Shown here piece after piece: positions 12,327 through 32,530 of a stretch of 64,000 bases of DNA (position 1 is its first letter; every line of letters starts with the position of its first letter). Source of the DNA: an uncultured Planctomycetia bacterium. GTDB lineage: Bacteria; Omnitrophota; Gorgyraeia; CAYWPX01. The stretch spans positions 49,826 through 113,825 of the forward strand of contig CAYWPX010000001.1 of NCBI GenBank assembly GCA_964460615.1, written 5' to 3'. The translations under genes were made by a program, and so were the position numbers. The notes below the pieces were generated by a model. The model ran no database searches. It was not told where the DNA came from and saw only the letters and a list, made by a program, of their open reading frames with translations.

Positions 12327-12327
12327 T

Positions 12328-13814: not shown

Positions 13815-13816
13815 AT

Positions 13817-15223: not shown

Positions 15224-15259
15224 AAATAGATAATCATTAAAGAAGAGGGGAAGATAAAA

Positions 15260-16786: not shown

Positions 16787-16806
16787 TAGAAGAAATTAAC
16801 GGCTAA

Positions 16807-18618: not shown

Positions 18619-20177
18619 TGCAACTAAAAAAGGTTGATTCTGTAAGAAAGAGGTACCTCGTCACGCTCTTTAGCAACGTAGTCTTATTCATGGCGAGCAT
18701 TGTAACTGCCGGTATTGTCCCTAGGGCGCTGGGGCCTAAAGAGCTAGGGGATTTCGGTTTTTTAAACCGCGTTTCCAGTTCATTCAGAAATATGCTTGAT
18801 ATGGGTACGTCAAGCGCTTTTTTTAACCTCAATTCCAAAGAGGAAAAGACAGGTTCTTTAGTAAAAGCTTACTCGCTCTGGTTTTTGTTCCAGTTAGTAT
18901 TGATAATAAGCCTTATTATCTTGGCATTCTTGATAGGGATAAAGGATCTTATCTGGCCGGGCCAGGAGCTAAAATACATAGTCTGGGTAGCCGTTTTTGA
19001 CTGGGTATTTTTCTCGGCAAGCTTATTAAGACAGCTCGGCGACAGCAAAGGCCATACGACAAATGCGCAGTTAATAAATCTGGTTATAAGTATCTTAAAT
19101 ATTGTTGTTTTAGTTTTTTTTGCGCTTAAAGGATTTTTAAATATAGGCTTTTACATAGCCATCCAGATATTCAGTTCTGCGCTTATTTCGTTATTTATCA
19201 TGTTATTTGTAATAGCCCCCCACAGGGATATTTACTGGGATGGTAAAATCACCGATCACTTAAAAGGGACGATCAAATACTTCAAAGAATTCTGTTCGCC
19301 GCTAGTTATGATAATGATCGTGAGTTTTATTTTTGAGTATTTTGACAGGATGTTCTTGCAGAGGTTCGGCGGGTCGGTAGAGCAGGGGTATTTTCATATT
19401 GCCTCGAGTTGGGCGACATTTTCAACGCTCTTCACAGCATCGTTCCTTTCGATATATAAAAGGGAGGTTGCTTATTCTTTAGGCGGTAATGATAAGCTAA
19501 GGGCATCCGAGATCTTTAGCAAGTACATTAAGATGCTTTACTTTATCACATTGACATTGGCGGTTTTATTGGCTTTTAACGCTAAAGAGTTATTGGAGCT
19601 TATTGCCGGGCCTAAATTCACTCCGGCTACTATGGTCTTATTTTTGATGGCTTTTTATCCTATTCACCAGGTCTATGGGCAGCTTGGCGGGGCGACATTC
19701 TATTCGACTGAAAGGACAAAGGCTCTTAGGAATATTCAGATTGTCGGGATGCTTCTTGGGATAGGGTTAACATATCTATTTTTAGCCCCCTCAACATTAT
19801 TAATACCGGGGCTTGGAATGGGTTCAGTGGGGTTGGCTTTTAAAACAGTTTTATTGAATATTATTATAGTTCAGGTGTATTTAGTTTCTAATTGCAGGTA
19901 TTTTAAAATAAGCCCTAAGCCATTTTGGGTCCATCAGATATATACGGTTTTGATTTTATTTGTTCTGATGGTGGTTTTAAAATGGGCGGTATTCTTTTTT
20001 ATCGGCGGAGTTTCACCTTTGGTTATTTTTGGAAAGCTTGCGCTTTTGGCATTTTTGTATTTTGTTCTTATATTTATTATGATCTATTTTTTCCCGCATA
20101 TTGCGGGTTTGAAAAAGGAAGAGATTGATTTCGTGCTTGATAAGATAAAGGCGGTCTTAAGGTTTAAAAAGGCCTAA
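18618..20177 (+). CDS. polysaccharide-biosynthesis/MOP-superfamily membrane protein (Wzx-like flippase)
   Basis: 519 aa, about 14 hydrophobic segments, with a charged N-terminus followed by repeated TM helices typical of Wzx/MATE-like exporters. Confidence 0.55.
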   Translation: MQLKKVDSVRKRYLVTLFSNVVLFMASIVTAGIVPRALGPKELGDFGFLNRVSSSFRNMLDMGTSSAFFNLNSKEEKTGSLVKAYSLWFLFQLVLIISLIILAFLIGIKDLIWPGQELKYIVWVAVFDWVFFSASLLRQLGDSKGHTTNAQLINLVISILNIVVLVFFALKGFLNIGFYIAIQIFSSALISLFIMLFVIAPHRDIYWDGKITDHLKGTIKYFKEFCSPLVMIMIVSFIFEYFDRMFLQRFGGSVEQGYFHIASSWATFSTLFTASFLSIYKREVAYSLGGNDKLRASEIFSKYIKMLYFITLTLAVLLAFNAKELLELIAGPKFTPATMVLFLMAFYPIHQVYGQLGGATFYSTERTKALRNIQIVGMLLGIGLTYLFLAPSTLLIPGLGMGSVGLAFKTVLLNIIIVQVYLVSNCRYFKISPKPFWVHQIYTVLILFVLMVVLKWAVFFFIGGVSPLVIFGKLALLAFLYFVLIFIMIYFFPHIAGLKKEEIDFVLDKIKAVLRFKKA

Positions 20178-20188: not shown

Positions 20189-21805
20189 ATGAATAAATCT
20201 GCTAAACTAAGGGAGTTATTTAGAAAAGGTAATATCGTAAAGGTCATGGGTTCGCACGATGCGCTTGGCGCAAAATTGGCGGAAAATAGCGGGTTTGACG
20301 CTGTATGGGCAAGCGGCCTTGAGATATCCACGAGCCACGGCGTTCCTGATGCCAATATCCTTACAATGACCGATTTTCTTGACGCGGCAATTTCGATGAA
20401 TGAGGCAGTATCCGTACCGGTGGTTGCCGATTGCGATACTGGTTTCGGAAATTCCAATAATGTAATACACATGGTAAAAAAATATGAAGCGGCGGGCATT
20501 GCGGCTGTCTGCATAGAAGATAAACATTTCCCTAAAGTAAATAGTTTTATTCCGGGCAGGCAGGAGCTTGCGCCTATATCGGAATTCGTAGGAAAGATCT
20601 TGGCCGCCAAGAATGCCCAGTCTACCAAGGATTTTATGGTAATAGCGCGGGTCGAAGCGCTTATAGCCGGCTGGGGAATGGAAGAAGCTCTTAAAAGAGC
20701 CAATGCCTATAGAGATGCCGGAGCCGATGCTATCCTTATACACAGTAAGGCAAAGGACCTTAAAGAGATAAAAGAATTTATTTCTAAATGGAAAAACCGG
20801 TTGCCTTTAGTTGTTGTCCCGACCACATATTATAAAGTCAGCGCTAAAGAGCTTGAATCGATCGGTATAAAGATGGTTATATATGCCAACCAGGGTATGC
20901 GTGCATCAATTAAGGCTATGAGCGATACATATTCCGAGATTATAAGATCCGGCTCGACTGCTTCTATTGAAGATAGTATTGCATCGATGAAAGAGGTTTT
21001 TGAACTCCAGGGAATGACCAAGATGAAGGAGAACGAACTTATTTATTCCGATACTGATACCGATAAAGTTACAGCAATAATTCCTTCCGCCGGAGACCAT
21101 CTTGAAGAATATTCTATGAAGGAGATCTCTAAGGATATACCTATTTCTATGATAGATATAAACGGTAAGCCGCTTCTCCAGAGGCAGCTTGAAGTATTGA
21201 ACCGCTCTAAGGTATATGATGTAAGGGTTGTTGCCGGATACAAGAAAGATAAGATCAACGTTGAGGGAGTAAAGATAGTTTCCAATGACCTCTACAAAAA
21301 AACAGGGATACTTTTTTCTATCATGAAGGCACTTGAAGAAGTGAATTCAAAGGTTTTTATCAGTTATGGCGATGTCATTTTTGACCACATTATTTTTAAC
21401 CGATTATCCGAAAGTCCCAAGGATATAACAATATTAGTAGATAAAACATATGAGGACAAAAATTACGGCCCGGAAAAAAAGATCGATTTTGCCAATGTAA
21501 AAGCCAACCATCCGGGCTCCCAGAGAGTTCTCAACTCTCATTCTATAAAGGTTGTTACAAAGATAAGCCGCAGCGGCGCTGCCTATGAATTCCCGGGTTT
21601 GACATTCCTTTCTTCCAAAGGAGTAAGCATAATAAAAGAGATTTATAAAAAGAATAAACATAGGCTTCTCAGTAGCGGGCTGGGGGATATACTAAATCTT
21701 GCCATAAAAAATGGTTATGAGGTCTCTGCGATAGAGGCTAATTCGGGTTGGATGGAGATACATTCTCTTGAAGATTATAAACTGGCGTGCAAATTAGTGA
21801 GATAA
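20189..21805 (+). CDS. pepM: phosphoenolpyruvate phosphomutase fused to a C-terminal nucleotidyltransferase (Fom1/PntC-like PepM-cytidylyltransferase)
   Basis: N-terminal VMGSHDALGAKLAE..GFDAVWASGLEISTSHGVPDAN and EDKHFPKVNSFIPGRQ match PEP mutase. The C-terminal about 250 aa (AIIPSAGDHLE...INGKPLLQRQLEVL) is a nucleotidyltransferase fold. Confidence 0.85.
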   Translation: MNKSAKLRELFRKGNIVKVMGSHDALGAKLAENSGFDAVWASGLEISTSHGVPDANILTMTDFLDAAISMNEAVSVPVVADCDTGFGNSNNVIHMVKKYEAAGIAAVCIEDKHFPKVNSFIPGRQELAPISEFVGKILAAKNAQSTKDFMVIARVEALIAGWGMEEALKRANAYRDAGADAILIHSKAKDLKEIKEFISKWKNRLPLVVVPTTYYKVSAKELESIGIKMVIYANQGMRASIKAMSDTYSEIIRSGSTASIEDSIASMKEVFELQGMTKMKENELIYSDTDTDKVTAIIPSAGDHLEEYSMKEISKDIPISMIDINGKPLLQRQLEVLNRSKVYDVRVVAGYKKDKINVEGVKIVSNDLYKKTGILFSIMKALEEVNSKVFISYGDVIFDHIIFNRLSESPKDITILVDKTYEDKNYGPEKKIDFANVKANHPGSQRVLNSHSIKVVTKISRSGAAYEFPGLTFLSSKGVSIIKEIYKKNKHRLLSSGLGDILNLAIKNGYEVSAIEANSGWMEIHSLEDYKLACKLVR

Positions 21806-22299
21806 ATATTATGATAGACACAAAATTATTTTTAAAAAAACTTAAAAAAACAGGTTATACTTTTTTTGCAGGCGTGCCCTGTTCCATATTAAAGAATCTC
21901 CTTAAAGAGATTGAGAATGATCCGGAAATTTCATATATCCCAGCTGTGCGCGAAAACGCAGCGCTTGGGGTAGCAAGCGGAGCATATCTAACCGGCAAGA
22001 AACCTTGCGTACTTATGCAGAATTCCGGCCTGGGTAATATTGTGAACGCTATAACATCTTTTAATCATATTTATAAGATCCCGTCGCTAGTGATTATGAC
22101 CTGGAGAGGGTTTGAGGGCAAGGATGCGCCGGAACATATTATCATGGGTAAAATCATGACTGAATTATTGGACGAACTTAAGATGCCTTATAAGGTAATA
22201 GGTGAAAACTTTGATATGGATATAGAGTGGGCGGATGGAATCATCAGTAAGACTTCATTGCCTGCAGTATTGATACTTAAGGATGGGCTATTAAAATGA
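21787..22299 (+). CDS. phosphonopyruvate decarboxylase, alpha (N-terminal TPP-enzyme) subunit
   Basis: 170 aa, FFAGVPCSILKNL. It lies immediately downstream of pepM and is coupled to the beta subunit (ATGA overlap). Confidence 0.75.
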   Translation: MQISEINIMIDTKLFLKKLKKTGYTFFAGVPCSILKNLLKEIENDPEISYIPAVRENAALGVASGAYLTGKKPCVLMQNSGLGNIVNAITSFNHIYKIPSLVIMTWRGFEGKDAPEHIIMGKIMTELLDELKMPYKVIGENFDMDIEWADGIISKTSLPAVLILKDGLLK

Positions 22300-22859
22300 A
22301 AACAAACGACGCCTTAAAAATATTTTTTGATAAATTAGAGGATAATGATGTAGCATTGTTCACGACGGGGTTTACTTCAAGGTTTGCTTTTAATGTCAAG
22401 GAGCGTCCGGCAAACTTTTATATGATAGGCTCGATGGGGCTATTATCTTCGGTCGGACTTGGGATAGCCTTAAATTCAAAAAAGAGGGTGTTTATCTTTG
22501 AAGGCGACGGAAGTCTTTTGATGGACATGGGTACAATGGCAATGATAGCAAAACATAAACCTCAAAATCTTTTTCATATAGTTTTGGATAATAAGTCCTA
22601 TGAATCTACCGGAGGTCAAAAGACCATAAGTAGCGATATCGATTTTTCCAAAGTTGCCGAAAATCTTGGATACAATGAAGTATATAAAATCTATAATTCA
22701 AAGGACCTGGAAAATGAGATCTCTGATATCGTCGATTCAACTGGGCCGGTATTTATTCATCTGGAGATAAAAAATGATCCGGATTCTCATGTGGGAAGAG
22801 TTTCGATAGACCCGGATAAGCTTACAGAAAGATTAAAAAAGGAATTGAAGGCAAAATAA
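22296..22859 (+). CDS. phosphonopyruvate decarboxylase, beta (TPP-binding) subunit
   Basis: GSMGLLSSVGLGIALNSKKRVFIFEGDGSLLMDMG is the GDG-x-N TPP-binding motif. 187 aa. Confidence 0.75.
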   Translation: MKTNDALKIFFDKLEDNDVALFTTGFTSRFAFNVKERPANFYMIGSMGLLSSVGLGIALNSKKRVFIFEGDGSLLMDMGTMAMIAKHKPQNLFHIVLDNKSYESTGGQKTISSDIDFSKVAENLGYNEVYKIYNSKDLENEISDIVDSTGPVFIHLEIKNDPDSHVGRVSIDPDKLTERLKKELKAK

Positions 22860-22860
22860 T

Positions 22861-24327
22861 ATGATAAGAAAAATTCTGCTTATTAATCCTCCGAATACAA
22901 TGCCCGCTGACAGTGTGAGGCGAATCGGAGAGCCGCTGGGGCTTTTGTACCTTGGAGCTGTACTAAAAAATAACTGTTTTGAAGTCGAAGTATTTGATAT
23001 GGCCTGTCTAGGCTATGATAATTGCGAAACTCTGGACGGTTATGTGACATACGGTTCAACTGACGATGAACTTAAGGAAAGGATAATGTCCTCAAAGCCG
23101 GATGTTATCGGGGTAAGCTGCATGTTTACCGCCAGAGAGAAAAATACCTTCAGGGTCTGTAGTGTCGTAAGAAGTGTCGATAAATCTATTCCGATCATTG
23201 TGGGCGGGTTGCATCCAAGCCTTTTTCCTGAAAGGTTCATTGACGGCGGATATGCGGATTTTGTCATAACAGGCGAAGGTGAGGAGCGAATAGTAAAACT
23301 TGTAAATTGCATAAAAGAAGGCAAGCTCCCTGATTTTGACGGGGTCGCTTTTAAAGATAAAGATATATTCAGGCTTAACCCGATGATTATGAGGATCGAG
23401 GATCTTGATTCTATTCCATATCCGGATAGAAGCCTGGTAGATATGGAACGCTATATTAAGATAGGAGCTCCATATGCCCCGTTTTCGTATTGCCAGAGAG
23501 TTGCCCAGATACTTGCAACACGCGGTTGTCCAAACAGGTGCAATTTTTGTTCTACAGTGAGCTACTGGGGCAGAAAGATAAGGGCCAGGTCTGTAGATAA
23601 TATTATCGGCGAAATGAGGATACTCAAAGACCAGTACAATATAGAAGAGGTCCAGTTCGTCGATGACAATATGACCTTTAATAGAAAATTTGCTGAAGAA
23701 CTTTTTTTGAAGATGAAACAGTTTGATTTTAAGTGGTGTACGCCCCATGGGCTTATGTTTAATACCCTGGATAAGAACCTTATAAAGATAATGGCCGAAA
23801 GCGGCGCTTACCAGCTTACATTTGCCATAGAGAGTGGCTCAGAGAGGGTGCTCAGGGATATTATCCATAAAAATGTAAACCTTAAGATGGTTCGTGATAT
23901 TGTCGCTGAGGCCCACAAATATGATATAAGCGTCCACGGAATGTTTGTAATGGGTTTCCCGGGAGAGAAAAAAGAAGAGATACAGAAATCTCTTGAGTTT
24001 CCGTTCTGGGCTGAGTTTGACAGTGTCTCTTTTTTTATAGTGAACCCGCTTCCAGGATCAGAGCTTTATGAAGTATGTAAAAATAAGAATTATATAATCG
24101 AAAACTACAGCGCTATGGATTTCAAATCGGTAAATATCAATATCCCGAAGGATTCTCTAGATTACAACATGGATCCCGACGAACTACTGAAGCTTGTTGA
24201 TGAAAAGACCCATGAATTTAACGAGTGGGCAAAGCAAAAATTTCCAGAGAGGTGGAAAAGAAAGTTCGACAGGTATCTGCAAAACCATCCTAAAGACAAT
24301 AAGATAATAATGGGGAGGGTTACTTAA
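22861..24327 (+). CDS. cobalamin-binding radical SAM protein, class B, paralog 3 (Fom3-like genomic context)
   Basis: B12-domain (KILLINPP...LGLLYLGAVL), then GCPNRCNFC. 488 aa. It sits between ppd and the AEP transaminase. Confidence 0.8.
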   Translation: MIRKILLINPPNTMPADSVRRIGEPLGLLYLGAVLKNNCFEVEVFDMACLGYDNCETLDGYVTYGSTDDELKERIMSSKPDVIGVSCMFTAREKNTFRVCSVVRSVDKSIPIIVGGLHPSLFPERFIDGGYADFVITGEGEERIVKLVNCIKEGKLPDFDGVAFKDKDIFRLNPMIMRIEDLDSIPYPDRSLVDMERYIKIGAPYAPFSYCQRVAQILATRGCPNRCNFCSTVSYWGRKIRARSVDNIIGEMRILKDQYNIEEVQFVDDNMTFNRKFAEELFLKMKQFDFKWCTPHGLMFNTLDKNLIKIMAESGAYQLTFAIESGSERVLRDIIHKNVNLKMVRDIVAEAHKYDISVHGMFVMGFPGEKKEEIQKSLEFPFWAEFDSVSFFIVNPLPGSELYEVCKNKNYIIENYSAMDFKSVNINIPKDSLDYNMDPDELLKLVDEKTHEFNEWAKQKFPERWKRKFDRYLQNHPKDNKIIMGRVT

Positions 24328-24328
24328 A

Positions 24329-25393
24329 ATGATTATTTTTTCTCCGGGTCCTGCGAATATATCAAGCCGCGTTCGAAGATCTCTTTTGAAGCCGGATATC
24401 TGCCACAGGGATACGGAGTTCACTGATATTTTTTCCAATACCAGATCCCTCATTAAAGAGATTTTTTGTCTCAAGGGTTCTTATGAAGTTGTTTTTTTCG
24501 GAGGGTCCGGGACTGCGGCGATAGACAGTGTGATAAGCTCATTCGGCGGATATAAAAAGAAACTACTTATAATCTCCAACGGTATCTACGGCGAGAGGGC
24601 TTCGAGCATCGCAAGGATTTATAATATTGATTTTGACGAGATAAATTTCGGATGGGGCAACCAAATAGATCTTATTCAGATAGAGGATGCTTTAAGGAGC
24701 AGGAAATTCGGGGCGCTGTATTTTGTGCATCATGAAACTACAACAGGAATTCTGAACCCGCTTAAGGAGATCAGTAAACTGGCCAAAAAATACGATAACC
24801 TGGTGCTGGTAGACGCTGTAAGCAGTTTAGCCGGCGAAGAGTTTGACATCGAAGAGCTGAAGCTTGATGCCGTAATAGCCTCAAGCAATAAATGCATAAG
24901 GGCGATCCCCGGCATATCTTTTGTTATAGCTAGTAACGAGTTTATTAATAATGCCGGTTTTTGTAAGAGCGGATCTTTTTATACATCTTTTAAAGGACAT
25001 TTTGATATGGAGCTAAAAGGCCAGACGCCTTTTACGCCACCCGTGCAGACGTTTTATGCCTTGGAAGAGGCCCTTAAGGAGTTGAAGCAAGAGACGCTTT
25101 CAAAAAGGATCAAAGGCTTTTCTGAAATTACAAATCTTTTAAGAAACGGCCTCGAGAAGCTTGGGATAGAGTATCTGATCCCGAGGGCTTTAATGTCAAA
25201 TACCATGACAGTGATAAAGACCCCGAAGGGGAAGACTTACGAAGATCTGCACAGAGAGTTCAAAAAACATGGTTTTGTAATTTATTCTTCGCAGGGAAAA
25301 CTCGCTGGTCATACTTTCAGGCTCGGGACCGTAGGATTGATTTCAAAGAAGGATATCAAAGGATTTTTATCGGTATTTAAGGGGTTATTATGA
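24329..25393 (+). CDS. phnW: 2-aminoethylphosphonate--pyruvate aminotransferase-like class V aminotransferase
   Basis: IIFSPGPANISSRVRRSLLKPDICHRDTEF is the typical PhnW/AGXT-family N-terminus. 354 aa. It lies in a pepM-ppd context. Confidence 0.7.
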   Translation: MIIFSPGPANISSRVRRSLLKPDICHRDTEFTDIFSNTRSLIKEIFCLKGSYEVVFFGGSGTAAIDSVISSFGGYKKKLLIISNGIYGERASSIARIYNIDFDEINFGWGNQIDLIQIEDALRSRKFGALYFVHHETTTGILNPLKEISKLAKKYDNLVLVDAVSSLAGEEFDIEELKLDAVIASSNKCIRAIPGISFVIASNEFINNAGFCKSGSFYTSFKGHFDMELKGQTPFTPPVQTFYALEEALKELKQETLSKRIKGFSEITNLLRNGLEKLGIEYLIPRALMSNTMTVIKTPKGKTYEDLHREFKKHGFVIYSSQGKLAGHTFRLGTVGLISKKDIKGFLSVFKGLL

Positions 25394-26097
25394 GGGCAAT
25401 AATACTTGCCGCTGGCGTAGGAAAACGCCTTTCAAAATTTACACATAAGCCAAAATCTCTTTTAAAGATAAATAACGAAACCCTGATAACAAGGATCATA
25501 AGGCTTCTGAATGAGCATGATATCAGGGATATTGTTGTAGTTACCGGGTTTAAACAGGGGCTATTAAAAAGCGAGATAAGTAAATGCGGAAGGAAAGTCA
25601 AATTTATTCATAATAGCCTTTTTAAAAAAGGGAGCATAATATCTCTTTGGAAGGCCGCCGGTTATTTTAATAAAGATATCCTGATAATGGATGCAGATCT
25701 ATTTTTTGAGAGAGCGCTCATTAAAAAAGTTGTAGATTCGGAAAAGAAAGATTTCTTTCTTATTGATTCATCGAATAAGGTGGATAATGAAGCTGTTATA
25801 GTAGGTTTTAAGAGATCAAGAGCGGTTAAGCTTGAAAGAGGCCTTAAGGGTAAATACTCTCCGATAGGCGAATGGGCTGGTTTTCTAAAATTAAGCAGAA
25901 ATAGCGCCAAATATTTAAAAAAAATATTGGGAGATCTTATTAATAACGGCGATGAAGATTCCGGGTATGAATTTATTATACCAAGGCTTTTTAATAAAGT
26001 TAATATTTCCTATGAATTGATAGACGGATTAAAGTGGGTAGAGATCGATTTTCCAAAAGATGTGGTAAAAGCAAAGGGTTTAAGGATTATTGAATAA
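25390..26097 (+). CDS. LicC-like nucleotidyltransferase (CTP:phospho-alcohol/phosphonate cytidylyltransferase)
   Basis: MRAIILAAGVGKRL...KPKSLLKINNETLI. 235 aa. It is adjacent to a CDP-alcohol phosphotransferase. Confidence 0.6.
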   Translation: MRAIILAAGVGKRLSKFTHKPKSLLKINNETLITRIIRLLNEHDIRDIVVVTGFKQGLLKSEISKCGRKVKFIHNSLFKKGSIISLWKAAGYFNKDILIMDADLFFERALIKKVVDSEKKDFFLIDSSNKVDNEAVIVGFKRSRAVKLERGLKGKYSPIGEWAGFLKLSRNSAKYLKKILGDLINNGDEDSGYEFIIPRLFNKVNISYELIDGLKWVEIDFPKDVVKAKGLRIIE

Positions 26098-26926
26098 AGG
26101 AGGCAAAGTGAGCTTTTCTGAAGTAAGAAATGAAGTTTATGGCTATCACAGAAAGTACTATTCCTATATATTCAACTGGCCATGGTATTCATACAGAAGG
26201 TACAAGGCCATTTTTTATCTCGAAGTTGCGAGTGTAATGGTTTTTTTCTCCCTAAAGACAAAAATCACTCCCAATCAGCTGACTTTGTCGTATGTGCTTT
26301 TGAGTTTTATTGCCGGGTTATTGTTATCAATACCATGCAGGATAGCGGTAATTCTGGCTGTAATATTATTTTTCGTAAAACCCGCTATTGACTGGGCTGA
26401 TGGCGCTCTTGCCAGGATCAAAAAAACAACATCTATTACGGGGGATATCCTTGACAATTATGCCGCGGCATTAAGCTGGGTAATATTATGGGTTTCGATA
26501 GGGTTTTATTTGGGGAATTCGTTTAACAATATCTTCTATGTAATAACTGTTTTTATACCGATGATCTTTGCTATTGATATATATCCAAATATGAGAGAAA
26601 GGTTCATATATAGCTACTTTAATAAAAAAGAATACAGGATCATAGATAATAAGTCTTTTTCCGAAGGCGGTCCTCTCGGTAGATCGCGTATAGAGATCAT
26701 TAAATCGTTTGTCGACGGTATCTTTGAGCATAACGCGAGAACCGTTGATCTTATTTTAGCGATGATCGTTTTAGAGCTATTTACTCCTGTAAAGATATTA
26801 TGGGTATACTACTTATCTTTTTTAGTTTGGCAGATAACGACATATATAATCAGGCTATATTTATTTTCATTCAGGAAAAAAGCCGAAGCGGAGTTTGAAA
26901 ATCTGAAAAGAAACCTTTATGAATAA
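26090..26926 (+). CDS. CDP-alcohol phosphatidyltransferase-family membrane protein (head-group transferase)
   Basis: DWADGALARIKKTTSITGDILD matches the D-x2-DG-x2-AR-x8-G-x3-D signature. Multiple TM segments. 278 aa. Confidence 0.55.
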   Translation: MNKGGKVSFSEVRNEVYGYHRKYYSYIFNWPWYSYRRYKAIFYLEVASVMVFFSLKTKITPNQLTLSYVLLSFIAGLLLSIPCRIAVILAVILFFVKPAIDWADGALARIKKTTSITGDILDNYAAALSWVILWVSIGFYLGNSFNNIFYVITVFIPMIFAIDIYPNMRERFIYSYFNKKEYRIIDNKSFSEGGPLGRSRIEIIKSFVDGIFEHNARTVDLILAMIVLELFTPVKILWVYYLSFLVWQITTYIIRLYLFSFRKKAEAEFENLKRNLYE

Positions 26927-28007
26927 AATACGAGAAAATACTTATTCATGCGTCTATTGTTATAATAAACTTCGATTTGATGGCAAAGTTTTTATCTGCA
27001 ATAATTGTTCCAAAAAGTTCGAATTAAGAAACGGTATTCCCATACTTACCAGAATGGAGCGCTATTGGTGCAATTTTTCAAAAGACCTTATGAAAAAACT
27101 AAATATTGACGCTCACTCAAATGGCTGGAAGGATGCGATCAAAAAAAATATCAGCGGTAATGTTCTGGATCATATCTCGGCAAGGAACAGGGTAGATTTC
27201 AGGTTTGTGCTCCCCGATCTTAAGGATAAGTTGGTTCTTGATGTCGGTTCCATGTGGGGAGGCATTTCGGTGCCTATCTCTGATTATGCAAAAGAGGTGT
27301 ACTCGGTCGATACGACTTTTGAGACTTTGGAATTATTAAAGATCAGGGCTGAACAGGAAAATGTCAATAACCTGAATATAGCGCTTTCCTCCGCCCGGAA
27401 TCTCCCGTTCAGCGATAACTATTTTGATGTGGTTCTTTTAATAGGAGTTCTTGAGTGGCTTGGAGCGGATTATGATTTTGTAGCAAGCGAGCATTACGGG
27501 AAGCGCTCTAAAGACAGGGCAGTTGCAATAAAAAAACCCACTGAGCTTCAGCTAGAAGCCTTAAGCGAGATACAGAGGGTGCTTAAACCGGGCGGCAAGG
27601 TGCTGATCGCCATAGAAAACAGATATTTTTACAAATATTTCTTCGGTTATCCGGATCCTCATACGGCTGTGCCTTTTTCGTCCATTCTTCCCAGATTTTT
27701 GGCAAATAAGTATATGAATTTATTCAAGAACAAGAACTATCAGGAATATACCTATTCAATTTTTGGTTATAAAAAGCTTTTGAAGAAATCGAATTTCAAA
27801 AAATTCGATTTTTATGCCTCATCGCCGTCTTACAGGGAGCCGGAAGTCATACTGCCTCTTAATAACCCAAGATATATCAGATATTTCTATGAAAATTTCG
27901 GGCTAAGGGACCTGAAAGGCATAAAAAAATTCATTCCTTGGATTTTAATTAAACTTAATCTGATGAAATATCTGGTTCACAGCTACTTAATTGTCGCGGA
28001 GAAGTAA
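26919..28007 (+). CDS. class I SAM-dependent methyltransferase with N-terminal Cys4 zinc-ribbon (Trm112-like)
   Basis: CVYCYNKL...CNNCSKKF, then LVLDVGSMWGG (motif I) and VVLLIGVLEWL (motif II/III region). 362 aa. Confidence 0.65.
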   Translation: MNKIRENTYSCVYCYNKLRFDGKVFICNNCSKKFELRNGIPILTRMERYWCNFSKDLMKKLNIDAHSNGWKDAIKKNISGNVLDHISARNRVDFRFVLPDLKDKLVLDVGSMWGGISVPISDYAKEVYSVDTTFETLELLKIRAEQENVNNLNIALSSARNLPFSDNYFDVVLLIGVLEWLGADYDFVASEHYGKRSKDRAVAIKKPTELQLEALSEIQRVLKPGGKVLIAIENRYFYKYFFGYPDPHTAVPFSSILPRFLANKYMNLFKNKNYQEYTYSIFGYKKLLKKSNFKKFDFYASSPSYREPEVILPLNNPRYIRYFYENFGLRDLKGIKKFIPWILIKLNLMKYLVHSYLIVAEK

Positions 28008-28998
28008 AATGATAAATCTATTGGAAGATTATATATTAAATAACTGGGAATGCTTTGAGAAAAATCAGAAAAAACCCGGCCTTGTGAGTTTTATTAAATT
28101 AAACGGCCAAAGATCCGATAATGCCGCTTTGAATTTTGCCTTGTTTGTGGATGATGATGATGCTCCGAAATATTTTATTAAGGTAAATAGGCTTACTAAT
28201 GACTTCAGGCAGATAAAAAATGAGTTTGATAATCTGATTAATGTTGAAAGGACCATACCCCCAAGGCTTAAGGATTCTTTTCCGAAGCCGATCTATTTCG
28301 GGGATATGGAAAAGTCGACAAAGGTCATGATCGAGAGTTTTGTCAGCGGTAAAAAAATATACTTAGGCGATATTGCAAAACTGGAGATATTGCTTAAAAA
28401 AAGCTTTGAATGGCTAAAAGAATTTTATTCTGCCACAAAGCGGGATAAAACTTTGACATTTGACCTATCGGGCATAAAGAAAAGATATTATGAATTAAGA
28501 TCCGGATCAGTTTCAAAAGAGCTTGATCCTAAATTTGAAAAAGTAATGAAGGAATTCAGCAACATTGATAAAAGATCAGTTAATATCTCTGCTTCGCAGG
28601 GTGATTTTGATTTTGATAATATTGTTTTTGATAACGGTTCTCCCAAAATCCTGGACTGGGAAGACTTTAAATCGGATAGCCATCCATTTCTGGATGCAGA
28701 ATTCATGATCTTTAATACTGCGCTATATTTCTACAGGAATGTAGAGCATATCGAAAGTTTTAAAAAATTCTTTTCGGTCAATTCAAACACCAGGGTTATT
28801 GCCGAGTCGTATTTGACGGATTATTGCAAATTTCTTGGTGTGAATATTGGGCTTTTCCTTGTTGCGGCTATAAACGATACGTTGGATTTCCTAGACAAAG
28901 GTTACGGAAATCATTTAAAGGTTCCGATGCAGTCCTGGGATTTTTTTGAGTGCCTGTTGGATCTTGCTTTAGAAATGAGGGCTGATGGTCCAAAATAA
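27991..28998 (+). CDS. protein-kinase-like fold phosphotransferase (APH/choline-kinase family-like), catalytic-loop His replaced by Gln
   Basis: QGDFDFDNIVF matches the xGDxxxxN Brenner-type motif, and ILDWEDF resembles the IDxE motif. Weak overall. 335 aa. Confidence 0.4.
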   Translation: MSRRSKMINLLEDYILNNWECFEKNQKKPGLVSFIKLNGQRSDNAALNFALFVDDDDAPKYFIKVNRLTNDFRQIKNEFDNLINVERTIPPRLKDSFPKPIYFGDMEKSTKVMIESFVSGKKIYLGDIAKLEILLKKSFEWLKEFYSATKRDKTLTFDLSGIKKRYYELRSGSVSKELDPKFEKVMKEFSNIDKRSVNISASQGDFDFDNIVFDNGSPKILDWEDFKSDSHPFLDAEFMIFNTALYFYRNVEHIESFKKFFSVNSNTRVIAESYLTDYCKFLGVNIGLFLVAAINDTLDFLDKGYGNHLKVPMQSWDFFECLLDLALEMRADGPK

Positions 28999-30481
28999 AA
29001 AAATTAAAAAGGTTCTACTTATTACTCCTCCGGCGTATACCTTCAAAGATATGCCGGATATTAATCCTTTGCCACCCATCGGCTTAGGGTATTTAGCGGC
29101 AATTTTGGAAAAAAAGGGAATAGAGGTCGAGATATTCGATTCTCTTATTGAGGGGATCGGTAAGGAAGAGCTTATTGAGGATAATATAATAAGGATCGGC
29201 TCGTCGTTTGGCGATATTGAAGCGAAGATAAGGTCGTTCTCTCCTGACATTGTGGGGGTGAGTAACCTTTTTTCAAGGCAGGCCAGAAATGCTCACGAGA
29301 TCTATAAGATTACTAAATCAATAGATCCTAAAATAATTGTAATTGCCGGAGGGGCGCACCCGACAGTAATGCCCGAGAGCGTAATTTTAGATCAGAATGT
29401 TGATTTCGTGATCTTAGGTGAAGGCGAAAGGACTTTGGAGGATCTGATAGGCCACCTCGAAGGGAAAATAGATTTAGGAAAGCTTAACGGTATCGCCTAC
29501 AGAACCGGTTCCAAGCCTACGATTGTGCCGAAGATTAATTTTATACTTGATATCGATAGCCTTCCTTTTCCGGCAAGGCATCTGATGAAACTGGATAAAT
29601 ACTTTGGCCTTAGCGAGTCTCACGGAAAGAGGCGATGCAAAAGATTTACTCCTATAGTTACCTCGAGAGGGTGCCCGGTTGGCTGTACCTTTTGTACGGC
29701 ACATCATGTTTGGGGCAGGAATTTCCGTAAACGGAGCCCGGAGAACGTCCTAGCGGAGATGAGGGAGTTAAAGGATAAATATAACATCGAAGAGCTGCTT
29801 TTTGAGGATGACAATGTAACATTGGATGTGAAACGTGCCGAGTCCATCTTTGATATGATGATCTCGGAAAAACTTAATTTTAAATGGGATACGCCGAATG
29901 GTGTTGCAGCCTTTGCTTTGGACGAGAGACTGATAAAAAAGATGCAGGATGCCGGCTGCTACCATCTTAATATCGCGGTGGAATCCGGAAGTCCCAGAGT
30001 TCTTAAAGAGGTCATCAAAAAGCCTCTGGATCTGGATAAAGTCGAAAGGCTTATCAAATTTACCAGAAAGATTAACCTGGAATCCTGTATATTTCTTATT
30101 ATTGGAATGCCCGGTGAGACGCTTAAAGATATGTGGGACAGTTATAAGTATGCCAAAAAAATAGGCGTTTACAAGCCGTTTGTCTCTGTGGCAACTCCGT
30201 ATCCCGGGTCGCTTCTTTATGATCTTTGTTTGGAAAAAAAATATATCAAAAAGGGATTTTCTTTGAATGATCTATATATAACAAGCTGCAGCATTCAAAC
30301 CCGGGAATGGAACAGCGAGGATGTTAGAAAGCTTTTCTCGAAGGGGTTCTTTTATCTGCAGATGGAGCATTATAAAAAGCACCCTATTGAATTTGCAAAA
30401 AAAGCAGCAGTAGCGATCCTGAAAAACCCTATAAGGACATTAAAGAAAGTAGGATTATTATGTCAAAATATGAAAAGTTAA
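28985..30481 (+). CDS. cobalamin-binding radical SAM protein, class B, paralog 4
   Basis: KVLLITPP...IGLGYLAAIL B12-domain, then GCPVGCTFC. 498 aa. Confidence 0.8.
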   Translation: MVQNKKIKKVLLITPPAYTFKDMPDINPLPPIGLGYLAAILEKKGIEVEIFDSLIEGIGKEELIEDNIIRIGSSFGDIEAKIRSFSPDIVGVSNLFSRQARNAHEIYKITKSIDPKIIVIAGGAHPTVMPESVILDQNVDFVILGEGERTLEDLIGHLEGKIDLGKLNGIAYRTGSKPTIVPKINFILDIDSLPFPARHLMKLDKYFGLSESHGKRRCKRFTPIVTSRGCPVGCTFCTAHHVWGRNFRKRSPENVLAEMRELKDKYNIEELLFEDDNVTLDVKRAESIFDMMISEKLNFKWDTPNGVAAFALDERLIKKMQDAGCYHLNIAVESGSPRVLKEVIKKPLDLDKVERLIKFTRKINLESCIFLIIGMPGETLKDMWDSYKYAKKIGVYKPFVSVATPYPGSLLYDLCLEKKYIKKGFSLNDLYITSCSIQTREWNSEDVRKLFSKGFFYLQMEHYKKHPIEFAKKAAVAILKNPIRTLKKVGLLCQNMKS

Positions 30482-31587
30482 TGCCTGTCTCAAGGCCATC
30501 GCTTGGGCAGGATGAGTTAGCTGAGGTAGGTAAAGTTTTTGAATCGCATTGGCTCGGGTTAGGCGCGTGGGTATTGAGATTTGAAAATAGGATCAAAAGC
30601 TTCCTTAGCGCAAAATCAGTTATAGCAGTAAATACCGGCACAAGCGCGCTTCATCTTGCGCTTGATGCCTTGAATTTAAAGGAGGGCGATGAGGTGATAG
30701 TGCCTTCGCTTACTTTTGCCGCAAGCATACAAGCGATTGCTGCTTGTAAAGCAAGCCCAAAATTTTGTGATATAGAAGAGGACACGCTCAACATCGACTC
30801 GGCCGAAATAAAAAAACTTATAACAGATAAGACAAAGGCGATCATGCCTGTGCACTATTGCGGGCTTCCTTGTGATATGGACGAGATCATTAAAATAGCA
30901 AAGGATAACGATCTAAGGGTTGTTGAGGACGCTGCTCATGCATTCGGGTCATATTATAAGAACAGATTGATAGGCTCGTTCGGGGATGTTACCTGTTTTA
31001 GCTTTGACCCTATAAAAAATATCACCTGCGGCGAGGGCGGATGCATAGTGACGGGCGATGAAGAGTTGACAAAAATAATCTATAAAAAAAGAATACTCGG
31101 CATAGACAAGGATACATGGTCACGATATGAGCATAAGAGGGACTGGTTCTATGAGGTAACCGACCTTGGCTTCAGGTACCATATGAGCAATATAAACGCC
31201 GCCATAGGGCTTGTCCAGATGGATAAACTGCCACAGTTCATAGCGAAGAAGAGAGAATTGGTAAAAAAATACGATGAAAACTTCAGAAACTTAAAGGAGA
31301 TCAAATTATTGGTAAGGGATGTGGATAATATAGCGCCTTTTAATTACATAATAAGGGTTCAGAAGAGAGATGAGCTGATGAATTTCCTAAAGGAGAACGG
31401 GATAGATAGCGGGGTGCATTATATTCCCAACCATATCCAGCCGTTTTTCAGCAAATTTGACACTACCGGGCTTAAGGTTACGGACATGGTATGGAAAGAG
31501 ATAATAACTTTACCTTTGTTTTTCGATATGCTTGATAGCGACCAGGACAGGGTAATAGAATGCATAAAGAGGTTCTATAAAAACTAA
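30460..31587 (+). CDS. DegT/DnrJ/EryC1-family aminotransferase (ArnB-like in context)
   Basis: 375 aa, with sugar aminotransferase motifs (GDEVIVPSLTFAASIQA, FSFDPIKNITCGEGG). Confidence 0.75.
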   Translation: MSKYEKLMPVSRPSLGQDELAEVGKVFESHWLGLGAWVLRFENRIKSFLSAKSVIAVNTGTSALHLALDALNLKEGDEVIVPSLTFAASIQAIAACKASPKFCDIEEDTLNIDSAEIKKLITDKTKAIMPVHYCGLPCDMDEIIKIAKDNDLRVVEDAAHAFGSYYKNRLIGSFGDVTCFSFDPIKNITCGEGGCIVTGDEELTKIIYKKRILGIDKDTWSRYEHKRDWFYEVTDLGFRYHMSNINAAIGLVQMDKLPQFIAKKRELVKKYDENFRNLKEIKLLVRDVDNIAPFNYIIRVQKRDELMNFLKENGIDSGVHYIPNHIQPFFSKFDTTGLKVTDMVWKEIITLPLFFDMLDSDQDRVIECIKRFYKN

Positions 31588-31588
31588 T

Positions 31589-32530
31589 ATGCCATTAGTC
31601 AGCGTCATTGTACCGTTATTTAACAGCGAGAGATACCTGCAGGAAACGATTGCCGGCGTATTGGCGCAGACTTTCAGGGATTTTGAGATCATACTGATGG
31701 ATGACGGGTCCAAAGACAGTACCGCTAAAATCGTCAGATCTTTCAATGACCCGAGGATCAGGTATTTTTATAAGGAGAATGAAGGGCTTTCTGAAACGCG
31801 TAATAAGGCCATACGCGAATCGAAAGGAGAGCTAATAGCATTTCTTGACCATGATGATGTTTGGCTTGAGGAAAAACTGGCTAAAGAGGTCGCCTTGTTG
31901 ACGGGTAATGATGCCTTGGGGCTCGTATATTCCGACGCTTATATATTATTTAACGATAAGACAAGCGGTGTTACTTATTTTAAACGCTCAAACCCTAAAA
32001 AAGGAATGATACTGAAGGACCTGCTTTTTGATTCCGTCAATTTTATTCCGCTTCCTACGGTGTTAATGAAAAGGAAGGTGTTTGATGAGGTTGGGGATTT
32101 TAATAAAGATTTCAAGATAGGCGAAGAGTATGAGCTTTTTTTAAGGGTTGCCGAGAAGTATGAATTTGACTATGTCGATGAGCCGCTGGCAAAATATAGG
32201 ATACATAATAACAGTTTTAGTAATAAAAAAGACCTCTTTGTTAAAGAACACTTTATGATACTCGATATCTGGAAGAATAAAAGGCCGGATCTCTTTATAA
32301 GCGACGAATCAAAAAACAGGGTCTTAAGAAAAGAAGCGGATCTTTATAATGAACTGGGGACTTTTTATGCGCTAAATCTGAACAAAGATAAAGCGCTCGA
32401 TAATCTTAAGCTCAGTCTAGAAAAAAAATTCAGGAAGAATACGGCGATAAAGAAGATTTTTGTTCAATACCTCGGCGTAAATATCTTCAAAATAATATTT
32501 AACCTTATCAGCGGGCCGAAACATGGATAA
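31589..32530 (+). CDS. family 2 glycosyltransferase
   Basis: VSVIVPLFNSERYL...IILMDDGSKD is the GT2 N-terminus including the DxD region. 313 aa. Confidence 0.75.
   Translation: MPLVSVIVPLFNSERYLQETIAGVLAQTFRDFEIILMDDGSKDSTAKIVRSFNDPRIRYFYKENEGLSETRNKAIRESKGELIAFLDHDDVWLEEKLAKEVALLTGNDALGLVYSDAYILFNDKTSGVTYFKRSNPKKGMILKDLLFDSVNFIPLPTVLMKRKVFDEVGDFNKDFKIGEEYELFLRVAEKYEFDYVDEPLAKYRIHNNSFSNKKDLFVKEHFMILDIWKNKRPDLFISDESKNRVLRKEADLYNELGTFYALNLNKDKALDNLKLSLEKKFRKNTAIKKIFVQYLGVNIFKIIFNLISGPKHG

Follow-up and report, generated by a model that had tools for sequence, protein, structure and literature searches.

The window, by which we mean the whole 64-kb stretch of DNA analysed here, is a same-strand glycan cluster of an uncultured bacterium that also holds NulO genes, two Wzx flippases, many glycosyltransferases and a WecA-type initiating transferase. 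Embedded in it, with conserved synteny, is a contiguous block of nine ORFs, all on the plus strand and tightly packed or overlapping, in which the initial annotation had read a pathway for a 2-aminoethylphosphonate (AEP) head group. The nine ORFs lie where it had placed them, and Pfam and NCBIfam profiles, and for the kinase-like protein its orthologues and a structure model, agree with the family proposed for each gene. From the gene calls on the identical public contig, three start codons were revised, namely those of the decarboxylase alpha half (21787 to 21811), the membrane transferase (26090 to 26108) and the kinase-like protein (27991 to 28009). The block and its flanking genes are as follows:

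16807-18618, plus strand: LIC12162-family transferase (TIGR04331, NF046086 and PF27859 are listed for this gene and the next as a pair)
18618-20177, plus strand: Wzx-type flippase (PF01943)
20189-21805, plus strand: PEP mutase (PepM; residues 1 to about 285; PF13714) with a C-terminal MobA/LicC-type nucleotidyltransferase (NTase) domain (about 290-538; PF12804)
21811-22299, plus strand: phosphonopyruvate decarboxylase (Ppd), alpha half (TPP_enzyme_N, PF02776)
22296-22859, plus strand: Ppd, beta half (TPP_enzyme_C, PF02775)
22861-24327, plus strand: B12-binding radical SAM enzyme of a phosphonate-linked clade, proposed C-methyltransferase on CMP-AEP (PF02310, PF04055)
24329-25393, plus strand: AEP transaminase, PhnW/AepZ-like (Aminotran_5, PF00266)
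25390-26097, plus strand: stand-alone PntC/LicC-type cytidylyltransferase (NTP_transf_3, PF12804; PF00483)
26108-26926, plus strand: membrane enzyme with the CDP-alcohol phosphotransferase (CDP-OH PT) fold lacking the fourth signature aspartate (D4), proposed phosph(on)o-head-group transferase (PF01066)
26919-28007, plus strand: class I SAM methyltransferase with an N-terminal Trm112-like zinc ribbon, not phosphonate-specific (PF08241)
28009-28998, plus strand: small-molecule kinase-like protein of the APH/choline-kinase fold, with QGDxxxxN and DWE motifs (PF01636 in orthologues; AlphaFold/Foldseek)
28985-30481, plus strand: second B12 radical SAM enzyme, in the adjacent sugar module
30460-31587, plus strand: DegT aminotransferase, same module
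31589-32530, plus strand: GT2, same module

The first protein of the block combines a PEP_mutase domain (PF13714, 207 bits) with a fused NTP_transf_3 domain (PF12804) and exceeds the cut-off of the NCBIfam model TIGR02320 (338 against 319.5 bits). Its PepM part best matches the PEP mutase structure 5unc (E = 8e-110), while the NTase part matches LicC (1jyk). On alignment to the Mytilus PepM (1m1b) every catalytic residue is kept, namely D54, D81, D83, the EDKX5NS motif (E110-D-K-x5-N118-S119), R154 and H185. The fusion had been described as Fom1-like, which holds by analogy only: in Fom1 the cytidylyltransferase is an N-terminal PF01467 domain (PMC6697681), whereas here the NTase is a C-terminal PF12804 domain. 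Directly downstream are the ORFs with the TPP_enzyme_N and TPP_enzyme_C domains, which together constitute the split Ppd of the initial annotation. The alpha half matches both the Ppd model (TIGR03297, 128 bits) and that of the sulfopyruvate decarboxylase alpha subunit (TIGR03845, 137 bits) below their cut-offs; we read it as Ppd because PepM adjoins it in every AEP locus. The best NCBIfam match of the beta half is TIGR03297 (174 bits, profile positions 173-357).

The transaminase, recognized earlier as PhnW-like, has PhnW-AepZ (TIGR03301) as its top match with 331 bits, under the cut-off of 361, and scores 244 bits with TIGR02326. For the stand-alone NTase, initially termed LicC-like, the nearest solved structure is the AEP cytidylyltransferase Tde1415, a PntC-AEPT fusion (6pd1, E = 4.7e-12, residues 2-221). 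Together with the PepM-fused domain it makes two NTase domains in the block; CMP-AEP is the product of PntC, and clusters with both fused and separate NTases are known (PMC6697681). With the PepM residues complete, Ppd- and PhnW-like neighbours and an NTase nearest to PntC, the route initially proposed remains the best reading. Phosphonopyruvate would arise from PEP through PepM and be drawn on to phosphonoacetaldehyde by the split TPP decarboxylase; the PhnW-like transaminase would then yield AEP, and the PntC/LicC-type NTase would activate it to CMP-AEP, with homology supporting each of these steps.

The next gene encodes the presumptive attaching enzyme. It matches CDP-OH_P_transf (PF01066) with 37 bits against a cut-off of 22; its profile matches are AF2299 (4o6m, E = 2e-10) and then CEPT1/CHPT1, and Foldseek searches with its AlphaFold model (pLDDT 83) return AF2299 and PIP synthases as top matches (probability 1.00). 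These nearest solved relatives (AF2299, CEPT1, CHPT1) take small CDP-alcohol donors, not CDP-diacylglycerol; to our knowledge, no characterised CDP-OH PT acts on a glycan, their acceptors being lipids or inositol phosphate. The initial annotation had staked its reading on this fold and on the PepM active site, and it stands on both counts, since the PF01066 fold is matched and the catalytic residues are present. However, while the fold is right for an installing enzyme, the protein is not a canonical CDP-OH PT: its motif reads D95xxD98GxxARx8GxxxD116xxxA120, and the D4 position is A, G, S, T, H or E in all 130 subfamily sequences and D in none. D4 is the presumed catalytic base and an Mg-2 ligand (PMC6506517), and without it the transferase may follow another mechanism or serve another nucleophile. 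A scan of the window's ORFs of 150 aa or more turned up no LicD or other phosphotransferase, which leaves this protein as the sole phospho(no)transferase candidate there. A CDP-OH PT as the installing enzyme in an O-antigen-like operon had been considered uncommon, but its coupling to a PepM pathway has already been drawn for Nostoc and Burkholderia clusters, in which PepM/Ppd/AEPT/NTase genes accompany a CDP-alcohol phosphatidyltransferase (PMC5987646), and the same coupling is mentioned for a glycoconjugate region of a Borg (bioRxiv 10.1101/2024.11.05.622173).

Comparison across loci reveals the order of genes again on independent contigs (L005/L006, L093, L094 and partly L009), with amino-acid identities of 40-73%; in L094 it is kept except for a relocated radical SAM gene. 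The arrangement is therefore not due to chance. Upstream of the transferase subfamily lies an AEP cassette in the window, L005, L093 and L094; an HEP cassette in L095 (Ppd, Fe-ADH and NTase, on a contig that opens with part of a PepM-NTase); and a PepM-less cassette with a HisC/CobD-like PLP enzyme and two NTases in L002, L007 and L008. The identity of the stand-alone NTase to its orthologues is 42-58% in AEP loci versus 24-31% in the HisC and HEP loci, whereas that of the transferase does not track the cassette (36-54% versus 41-46% for the same comparison). On these sequence comparisons, the block is modular, with one transferase subfamily behind three interchangeable cassettes (AEP, HEP and PepM-less HisC-like). 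Because the genes upstream of it swap between loci, the subfamily would be expected to take various CMP- or CDP-activated head groups, be it AEP, HEP or an amino-alcohol phosphate.

No role had earlier been given to the B12 radical SAM enzyme encoded at 22861. It has an invariant C223-x3-C227-x2-C230 motif, and its best NCBIfam match is NF038361 (Sden_1168 family; 352 bits, under the cut-off of 575). Of unbiased metagenome loci, 5 of the 10 that hold a member of its clade also carry PepM/Ppd/PhnW, as opposed to 0 of 70 for other B12 radical SAM enzymes (Fisher p = 1e-5). Clade members are fused to an NTase (P0115, P0143) or a class-V aminotransferase (P0141), and adjoin D4-less transferases in five loci (L009, L010, L012, L015, L033); on an archaeal contig (L011) the two are four genes apart. 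The enzyme is found in all AEP loci and in none of the HEP and HisC loci compared. The tie to PepM/Ppd/PhnW, these fusions and the presence in all AEP loci suggest a Fom3-like C-methylation of CMP-AEP. Fom3 methylates CMP-HEP (as cited in PMC9204698); by analogy, the 22861 enzyme would act on a carbon of the CMP-bound aminophosphonate, giving C-methyl-AEP. In L010, there is no PepM within 8 kb of the radical SAM gene and its neighbouring transferase, which suggests that the enzyme may not act on a phosphonate in every locus.

On this analogy, the 22861 enzyme is a likelier source of methylated AEP than the SAM methyltransferase, to which N-methylation of AEP had been tentatively ascribed. The zinc-ribbon methyltransferase assignment itself is sound (PF08241, 60 bits; N-terminal CxxC...CxxC ribbon; Trm112p match of 20.7 bits in the L009 orthologue). 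However, the protein recurs in PepM-less loci, being 59% identical both in the AEP locus L005 and in the PepM-less L002, and the conservation of the kinase-like protein in PepM-less loci nearly equals that in AEP loci. Both genes are absent from two AEP loci (L093, L094), and they are fused in L007, L008, L009 and L095. The kinase-like protein itself has no Pfam match; its orthologues in L005 and L009 match PF01636 (APH, 31-33 bits, cut-off 23.2), it conserves K, E, (H/Q)G(D/N)xxxxN and D-W/F-E, and its AlphaFold model (pLDDT 88) retrieves APH(3'), APH(4) and homoserine kinase (Foldseek, E about 1e-8, probability 1.00), in agreement with the initial kinase-like label. These patterns show that the two are not phosphonate-specific, and hence not dedicated to the N-methylation of AEP; they may form a separate, often fused pair with a target common to all variants, e.g. 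the acceptor or the installed group.

We consider it reasonably probable that the block makes and activates a phosphonate head group and installs it on an acceptor that is associated with the membrane and belongs to the glycan pathway encoded around it. At the cytoplasmic face, the transferase would take the phosphonyl head group off CMP and pass it to a nucleophile such as a hydroxyl. Such head-group transfer with release of CMP is the chemistry of Kennedy-pathway enzymes. The acceptor would most likely be a lipid-linked glycan intermediate, modified before export by the neighbouring Wzx flippase. The flippase and the LIC12162-family transferase are likewise found ahead of the cassette in L005 and L094; in L093 the flippase is preceded by a 629-aa protein without family assignment. 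The downstream genes (28985-32530) form a sugar module outside the phosphonate pathway: the second radical SAM type is never found with PepM in the loci compared, is followed by DegT in L031, L039, L046, L047 and L052 (with GT2 too in L046 and L047), shares a locus with DegT and GT2 in L040 and L049, and shows 56-63% identity in most loci, whether of the AEP, HEP or HisC type.

Eukaryotic ethanolamine and choline phosphotransferases place their head group on a lipid, and (methyl-)AEP might similarly pass from CMP to a membrane lipid such as diacylglycerol, making a membrane phosphonolipid in place of a decorated glycan. All relatives with small CDP-alcohol donors that have been solved or characterised act on lipids (CEPT1, CHPT1) or inositol phosphate (AF2299/DIPPS), and the above Nostoc and Burkholderia clusters have been read as phosphonolipid pathways (PMC5987646). 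Nevertheless, we regard this as unlikely, given that the transferase gene always lies within glycan clusters, flanked by a Wzx flippase on one side and by genes for glycosyltransferases or sugar modification on the other, that lipid-synthesis genes were not seen in the window, and that D4 loss separates the transferase from the lipid-forming enzymes.

More doubtful is a division into two modules, in which the PepM-NTase fusion would make and activate a phosphonate destined elsewhere, while the remaining genes would form a Kennedy/Lic-like phospho-alcohol route (kinase, N-methylation, CDP-activation, transfer). Kinase, methyltransferase, cytidylyltransferase and CDP-OH PT are exactly the Kennedy gene set, PepM-less loci also carry the transferase, methyltransferase and kinase, and the PepM fusion bears its own NTase domain. 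However, the stand-alone NTase changes along with the cassette and is nearest to PntC; L093 and L094, which lack the methyltransferase and kinase, keep the NTase and transferase right after the AEP genes; the window has no alternative phosphonate transferase; and the kinase has a degenerate motif (QGD here versus QGN in L002).

A diffusible product such as a fosfomycin-like antibiotic is very improbable: a PepM-cytidylyltransferase fusion with a B12 radical SAM methylase does follow fosfomycin logic (PMC6697681, PMC9204698), but genes for an Fe-ADH, an epoxidase, a CMP-hydrolase, resistance or export are missing from the block, the gene of a membrane transferase comes immediately after, and the whole is embedded in the syntenic glycan cluster. 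Finally, sulfopyruvate decarboxylase models score about as well as Ppd models on the two TPP halves, which counts against our preferred reading, and slightly better on the alpha half; yet a ComDE enzyme yielding a sulfonate such as taurine can practically be dismissed, as both ComDE matches fall under cut-off, the beta half favours Ppd, the adjacent gene is a bona fide PepM with EDKX5NS, and enzymes that would form sulfolactate or sulfopyruvate are lacking.

For the phosphonate decoration of a glycan intermediate, both the acceptor and the methylated product are inferred. The locus represents a real pathway by which a phosphonate (C-P) decoration is made, activated and attached, and probably also methylated. 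Pathways of this type are already known; the attaching enzyme and the vitamin-B12 methylase represent uncharacterised subfamilies.

The nine ORFs of the phosphonate block are part of one 64-kb same-strand run of genes (about 39% G+C), in which they adjoin or overlap by a few bases. Every family that the initial annotation had named for this block was recovered with Pfam and NCBIfam models, on which the following assignments rest except for the last, which comes from the Pfam matches of orthologues and a fold search:

20189-21805, + strand: fusion of PEP mutase (PepM) and a MobA/LicC-type nucleotidyltransferase (NTase)
21811-22299 and 22296-22859, + strand: split TPP decarboxylase
22861-24327, + strand: B12-binding radical SAM enzyme
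24329-25393, + strand: class-V aminotransferase, with the AEP-transaminase model as best match
25390-26097, + strand: second, stand-alone NTase
26108-26926, + strand: CDP-OH_P_transf membrane protein (hereafter the transferase)
26919-28007, + strand: Methyltransf_11 enzyme with a CxxC...CxxC ribbon at the N-terminus
28009-28998, + strand: kinase-fold ORF without a Pfam match of its own

The start codons of three of these genes were improved from an identical public contig, and an exact look-up of the PepM-fusion protein returned no record. Tracing homologues of the transferase to their contigs yielded a set of comparative loci (designated by L-numbers), and the same gene order recurs on independent contigs with 40-73% protein identity, which argues that the arrangement is under selection. 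We consider it very probable that the block makes and CMP-activates a phosphonate of the 2-aminoethylphosphonate (AEP) type; the whole chain, including transfer by the unusual transferase described below onto an acceptor of the glycan pathway, is favored with distinctly less assurance. The core of the initial interpretation is supported, while several of its details had to be corrected.

The PepM domain matches PF13714 with 207 bits and passes the TIGR02320 model (338.3 bits against a cut-off of 319.55). What we take to be the Mg and substrate ligands of PEP mutase, D58, D85, D87, E114, R159 and H190 in Mytilus numbering, are matched column for column by D54, D81, D83, E110, R154 and H185 of the window protein. 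Thus, a lack of active-site residues, which had been raised as a possible objection, was not observed: all are present when the protein is aligned to the Mytilus PEP mutase structure. In this alignment the stretch E110-D-K-HFPKV-N118-S119 corresponds to EDKLFPKTNS of the Mytilus enzyme (1m1b), while phosphonopyruvate hydrolase (2dua) displays T-S where PepM has N-S; the EDKX5NS motif distinguishes true PEP mutases within the superfamily (PMC6697681). The two halves of the TPP enzyme score 128.5 and 174.4 bits on the phosphonopyruvate decarboxylase (Ppd) model TIGR03297, whose whole-protein cut-off is 312.5; their scores on sulfopyruvate decarboxylase models, 136.6 (cut-off 147.95) and 161 (cut-off 221.5), are similar. 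In L005, L093 and L094, as in the window, the putative Ppd genes directly follow PepM. The top match of the aminotransferase is TIGR03301, at 330.7 bits just below the cut-off of 360.8, with the next models at 244 bits or less. The stand-alone NTase contains a PF12804 domain (50 bits), and its best PDB match is the PntC protein Tde1415 (6pd1, E 4.7e-12, full length), followed by LicC (1jyk, 3.5e-7). Its best NCBIfam match is the bifunctional IPCT/DIPPS model, and the Sden_1164-family NTase-like model also matches.

The membership of the transferase in the CDP-alcohol phosphotransferase family, whose failure had likewise been anticipated as an objection, is borne out by PF01066 (37 bits against a cut-off of 22), by profile matches to AF2299 (E 1.9e-10), CEPT1 and CHPT1, and by a structural model that retrieves AF2299, PIP synthases and CHPT1 with a Foldseek probability of 1.00. 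The family is defined by the signature D1xxD2GxxARx8GxxxD3xxxD4, with four metal-binding aspartates, of which D4 is an Mg-2 ligand and presumably acts as the catalytic base (PMC6506517). The window protein has D95xxD98GxxARx8GxxxD116xxxA120 and does not match the full four-aspartate signature: upon alignment to AF2299 and CEPT1, the alanine falls exactly at their D4. D95, D98, G99, A102, R103, G112 and D116 are invariant, and among the 130 of the best 150 subfamily members in which the motif is visible, the D4 position is A in 72, G in 39, S in 12, T in 4, H in 2, E in 1 and D in none. The transferases linked to radical SAM enzymes in other loci likewise lack D4. A first homology search with 21 relatives only had suggested that the family is extremely rare; this was abandoned, since an exhaustive profile search recovered 119 clusters at E <= 1e-30 and 1715 at E <= 1e-10. 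Speculatively, the missing D4 function could be replaced by another conserved motif, FEHNARTVD, which spans residues 206-214. CEPT1/CHPT1 and the archaeal AF2299/IPCT-DIPPS proteins share the fold and the D1xxD2GxxARx8GxxxD3 core and use small CDP-alcohols as donors, and the IPCT/DIPPS match of the NTase fits the succession of NTase and transferase genes in the window; however, unlike these proteins, the window transferase lacks D4, has the extra FEHNARTVD motif and occurs in a glycan cluster. Given its CDP-alcohol phosphotransferase-like fold and predicted action, with one defining feature missing, we file it as a divergent subfamily, of which we found no description in the literature searched.

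Examination of the genes upstream revealed that this one subfamily stands behind three different head-group cassettes.

Head-group cassettes upstream of the transferase (22861 type, the clade of the B12 radical SAM enzyme at 22861-24327; HEP, 2-hydroxyethylphosphonate)
AEP cassette: PepM-NTase, Ppd alpha and beta, 22861-type radical SAM, PhnW, NTase (window, L005/L006, L093)
AEP cassette variants: radical SAM relocated (L094); partial (L009)
HEP cassette: PepM-NTase fragment at the contig start, fused Ppd, Fe-dependent alcohol dehydrogenase, NTase (L095)
HisC-like, PepM-less cassette: HisC/CobD-like PLP enzyme (TIGR01141, 249 bits) and two NTases (L002, L007, L008)

The Fe-dependent alcohol dehydrogenase of L095 belongs to the enzyme class that makes 2-hydroxyethylphosphonate, and from the chemistry of the HisC/CobD-like enzyme family we infer that the HisC-like cassette would produce the phosphate of an amino alcohol (serinol, aminopropanol or ethanolamine, for example). 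The stand-alone NTase tracks the cassette, with 42-58% identity among AEP loci against 24-31% elsewhere, whereas the identity of the transferase is independent of it (36-54% against 41-46%). Such a contrast would be expected of an NTase that recognizes the head group and a transferase that accepts any CMP- or CDP-activated group. It is the strongest in-silico support for the central idea of the initial annotation, namely that a CDP-alcohol phosphotransferase could install the activated phosphonate. We found no description in the literature searched of such a transferase behind swappable cassettes inside glycan clusters. In a scan of a genome collection, two MAG loci of Omnitrophota and Dehalococcoidaceae were the sole finds; the individual genes have named relatives in Omnitrophota, Dehalococcoidaceae, Riflebacteria and archaeal assemblies. 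In two AEP loci (L093, 10866-14550; L094, 10825-14443), what stands 3' of the transferase is not the methyltransferase and kinase but a 660-671-aa protein that has no clear Pfam domains, another NTase (the third, most similar to the PepM-fused type) and an EamA transporter. In L094, moreover, the NTase and the transferase are separated by a different methyltransferase of 272 aa.

The methyltransferase and kinase genes at the end of the block invite a rival, two-module reading of Kennedy or Lic type, which is less likely and has its basis in the observation that the kinase, methyltransferase, NTase and transferase together constitute a Kennedy-pathway gene set. As in the LicA/LicC/LicD system of phosphocholine decoration, there is a kinase-fold protein, a cytidylyltransferase and, as proposed, head-group transfer from CMP onto a surface glycan; however, the window transferase is of a family unrelated to LicD, and its phosphonate head group is made de novo, with no need of a kinase. 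The kinase-like protein had no match in a sequence search against the PDB, and its fold was settled by its orthologues, which pass PF01636, and by its AlphaFold model (pLDDT 88.2, pTM 0.86), for which Foldseek retrieves APH(3'), APH(4), APH(2'') and homoserine kinase (E about 1e-8, probability 1.00). It conserves the K, E, (H/Q)GDxxxxN and DWE/DFE motifs. Its catalytic loop reads QGDFDFDN, with DWE, in the window and the canonical HGD in the fused versions of L007-L009; in the L002 counterpart (11980-12960) it is QGN, with the catalytic aspartate lost. Its kinase activity is hence uncertain, and these sequence changes point to possible degeneration, or lack of catalysis, in the stand-alone copies. 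The methyltransferase, whose PDB matches are generic class I methyltransferases, is fused to the kinase in L007, L008, L009 and L095. Moreover, the two proteins are about equally conserved whether or not the locus has PepM (59% for the methyltransferase in either case; for the kinase, 37% in the PepM-less and 39% in the AEP loci) and are exchanged for other genes in L093 and L094, indicating that they are not AEP-specific. The proposal that the methyltransferase N-methylates AEP may hold, but is weakened by this conservation in PepM-less loci, its fusion to the kinase and its absence from two AEP loci.

The AEP reading draws further support from the B12 radical SAM enzyme at 22861-24327 (PF02310, 67 bits; PF04055, 84 bits), whose CxxxCxxC core (C223, C227, C230) is invariant in 24 homologues. 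The initial annotation had listed it without a role; its presence stands and it can now be assigned to a phosphonate-linked clade. Upon classifying the radical SAM enzymes of 80 unbiased metagenome loci, we observed that the 22861 type accompanies PepM in 4 of 10 loci against none of the 70 with other types (Fisher p = 1.3e-4), and PepM, Ppd or PhnW in 5 of 10 against 0 of 70 (p = 1.0e-5). Elsewhere it is fused to a PntC-like NTase (homologues P0115 and P0143) or a PhnW-like aminotransferase (P0141). Every AEP locus has one, while HEP and HisC loci have none. It also repeatedly adjoins or lies near a D4-less transferase; one such case is an archaeal contig on which LicD, PepM, Ppd and two NTases are encoded as well. 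Among curated models it matches best the Sden_1168 family (NF038361), of which, at 352 bits against a cut-off of 575, it is a relative and not a member. That family groups with Fom3 in similarity networks, and its SD_1168 of Shewanella denitrificans is a B12 radical SAM 'P-methyltransferase' whose physiological substrate is not established (PMC9204698). P-methylation, as in PhpK and SD_1168, was rejected as the default reading because this chemistry needs a phosphinate substrate and the window encodes no phosphinate-forming steps. By analogy with Fom3, which methylates CMP-HEP according to the summary in PMC9204698, the 22861 enzyme might instead C-methylate CMP-AEP, a proposal we regard as evenly balanced. 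Literature searches returned no relevant report of C-methylated AEP natural products and no description of an AEP-linked B12 radical SAM clade.

Several 22861-type loci have peculiarities of their own. In the 797-aa homologue P0108, Pfam domains for intein splicing and an HNH endonuclease mark an insertion, around which the radical SAM halves align to residues 1-227 and 204-488. A Riflebacteria MAG (L010, GCA_015233565.1, 2200-13700) couples a 22861-type enzyme to a D4-less transferase, next to two aminotransferases, a transaldolase/FSA-like gene and a transketolase, with no PepM within 8 kb; this may be a fourth head-group cassette. On the archaeal contig L011 (GCA_040961665.1), genes for a ribosomal P-stalk protein of archaeal type, L10 and L1 adjoin the region 8000-17482, in which a fusion of PepM with a PF01467 cytidylyltransferase occurs together with Ppd, an aldehyde dehydrogenase, two NTases, a D4-less transferase with LicD beside it, a class-V aminotransferase, an HD-domain protein and a 22861-type radical SAM.

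The window contains six radical SAM genes (12328-13125, 13817-15223, 15260-16786, 22861-24327, 28985-30481 and 45333-46739), one of the SPASM type and five B12-binding, an unusual density for one 64-kb same-strand glycan cluster that implies several radical methylations or rearrangements of sugars. The enzyme at 28985-30481, only about 36% identical to that at 22861, was considered as a second phosphonate enzyme and excluded: among the 80 loci its type is never accompanied by PepM, its companions being a DegT aminotransferase and a GT2. As it is also equally conserved across all cassette variants, it belongs to a sugar module. Its association with DegT, usually with GT2, is seen in the window (28985-32530) and on unrelated contigs (L031, L039, L040, L046, L047, L049, L052), with DegT and GT2 directly 3' of it in L046 and L047; this set looks like a conserved, uncharacterized amino-sugar modification module.

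The window as a whole is a lipid-linked glycan cluster, with rhamnose-type and UDP-sugar genes and many glycosyltransferases. A nonulosonic-acid module (10229-13814: NeuB, DegT aminotransferase, SPASM radical SAM, CMP-sugar synthase) is followed by a LIC12162/BFO_1060-family transferase (16807-18618), just upstream of a flippase and the phosphonate cassette. Its remaining genes (32523-34472, 40245-41774, 41764-43035, 43920-45314, 48641-51756, 54023-55924, 56637-57941, 62854-63894) include a methyltransferase-GT4 fusion, three membrane proteins of PMT_2/GT-C-like type, a transglutaminase-like protein, an MBOAT and an AsnB-like amidotransferase, as well as another Wzx-like flippase and an initiating transferase of the WecA/MraY type. 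The presence of two Wzx-type flippases hints at two glycans or two sub-clusters. No marker gene occurs in the window, and Pfam scans of its ORFs of at least 150 aa found no LicD (PF04991).

In this respect the block departs from its closest counterparts, the phosphonyl tailoring (Pnt) clusters that Rice et al. (2019, PMC6697681) described for Treponema denticola, Atopobium rimae and Olsenella uli. Those share with it the fusion of Ppm (PepM) to a PF12804 NTase, a second separate PntC, a cell-surface glycan context and, in our reading, Ppd, an AEP transaminase and CMP-AEP as the activated intermediate; however, they have LicD-like phosphotransferases where the window has the CDP-alcohol-phosphotransferase-fold protein, and their AEP cassette is without a B12 radical SAM. 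AEP-type Pnt clusters are common, and clusters with both Ppm-fused and separate NTases have been described (PMC6697681, PMC8942020). The fosfomycin enzymes Fom1 and Fom3 of Streptomyces, as outlined in PMC6697681 and PMC9204698, similarly combine a PepM-cytidylyltransferase fusion with a cobalamin-dependent radical SAM methylase acting on a CMP-bound phosphonate, as we propose for the 22861 enzyme. In these outlines, however, the Fom1 cytidylyltransferase is a PF01467 domain at the N-terminus, in contrast to the C-terminal PF12804 domain of the window fusion, and the Fom3 substrate CMP-HEP arises via an Fe-dependent alcohol dehydrogenase, whereas the window enzyme travels with the AEP aminotransferase and is absent from the HEP-type L095. 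Fosfomycin, moreover, is outlined there as a soluble antibiotic, while the window product is read as a surface group; we take the likeness to Fom3 as an analogy.

The initial annotation viewed a CDP-alcohol phosphotransferase as uncommon for the installing enzyme in an O-antigen-like operon; the coupling of PepM with such a transferase is itself not new, since it has been published before. The predicted phosphonolipid clusters of Nostoc cyanobionts and Burkholderia (PMC5987646, Fig. 7) have pepM, ppd, an AEP aminotransferase, an NTP transferase and a CDP-alcohol phosphatidyltransferase; unlike the window, they encode a 2OG-Fe(II) oxygenase (hydroxy-AEP) and no B12 radical SAM, and were read as lipid pathways. 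The glycoconjugate region of the Cobalt Borg (bioRxiv 10.1101/2024.11.05.622173) has PepM-NTase, a PntC-AEPT-like protein and a neighboring CDP-alcohol phosphotransferase, with no ppd described; for that transferase an active site conserved exactly was reported, in contrast to the D4-less window subfamily.

Decoration of the cell surface is the presumed role of most bacterial phosphonate genes, and the steps beyond CMP-AEP, i.e. installer, acceptor and tailoring, are largely uncharacterized (PMC6697681). Against this background, a CDP-alcohol-phosphotransferase subfamily without the presumed catalytic aspartate is a concrete candidate installer, the swappable cassettes before it offer a natural experiment on donor tolerance, and CMP-AEP is the proposed substrate of a widespread, uncharacterized B12 radical SAM clade related to SD_1168. 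Jointly, the 22861 clade would C-methylate CMP-AEP to give C-methyl-AEP, and the D4-less subfamily (at least 119 clusters at 50% identity) would be a mechanistically distinct class that installs interchangeable phosph(on)o groups on lipid-linked glycans; this combined claim is tentative, and we think it rather doubtful that all of it will hold. If true, the head group would be one not described in nature, and the transferases would handle AEP, methyl-AEP, HEP and amino-alcohol phosphates as CMP- or CDP-activated groups, for glycans rather than lipids, thereby adding a third route of phosph(on)o-decoration to those of the LicD-type and EptA-type enzymes. The reading would, in addition, indicate what kind of physiological substrate SD_1168-like enzymes act on. 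Should experiments prove negative, an ordinary AEP-type Pnt cluster would remain; if confirmed, these uncultured lineages would provide both a new natural phosphonate and a new enzymatic route to phospho(no)-decorated glycans.
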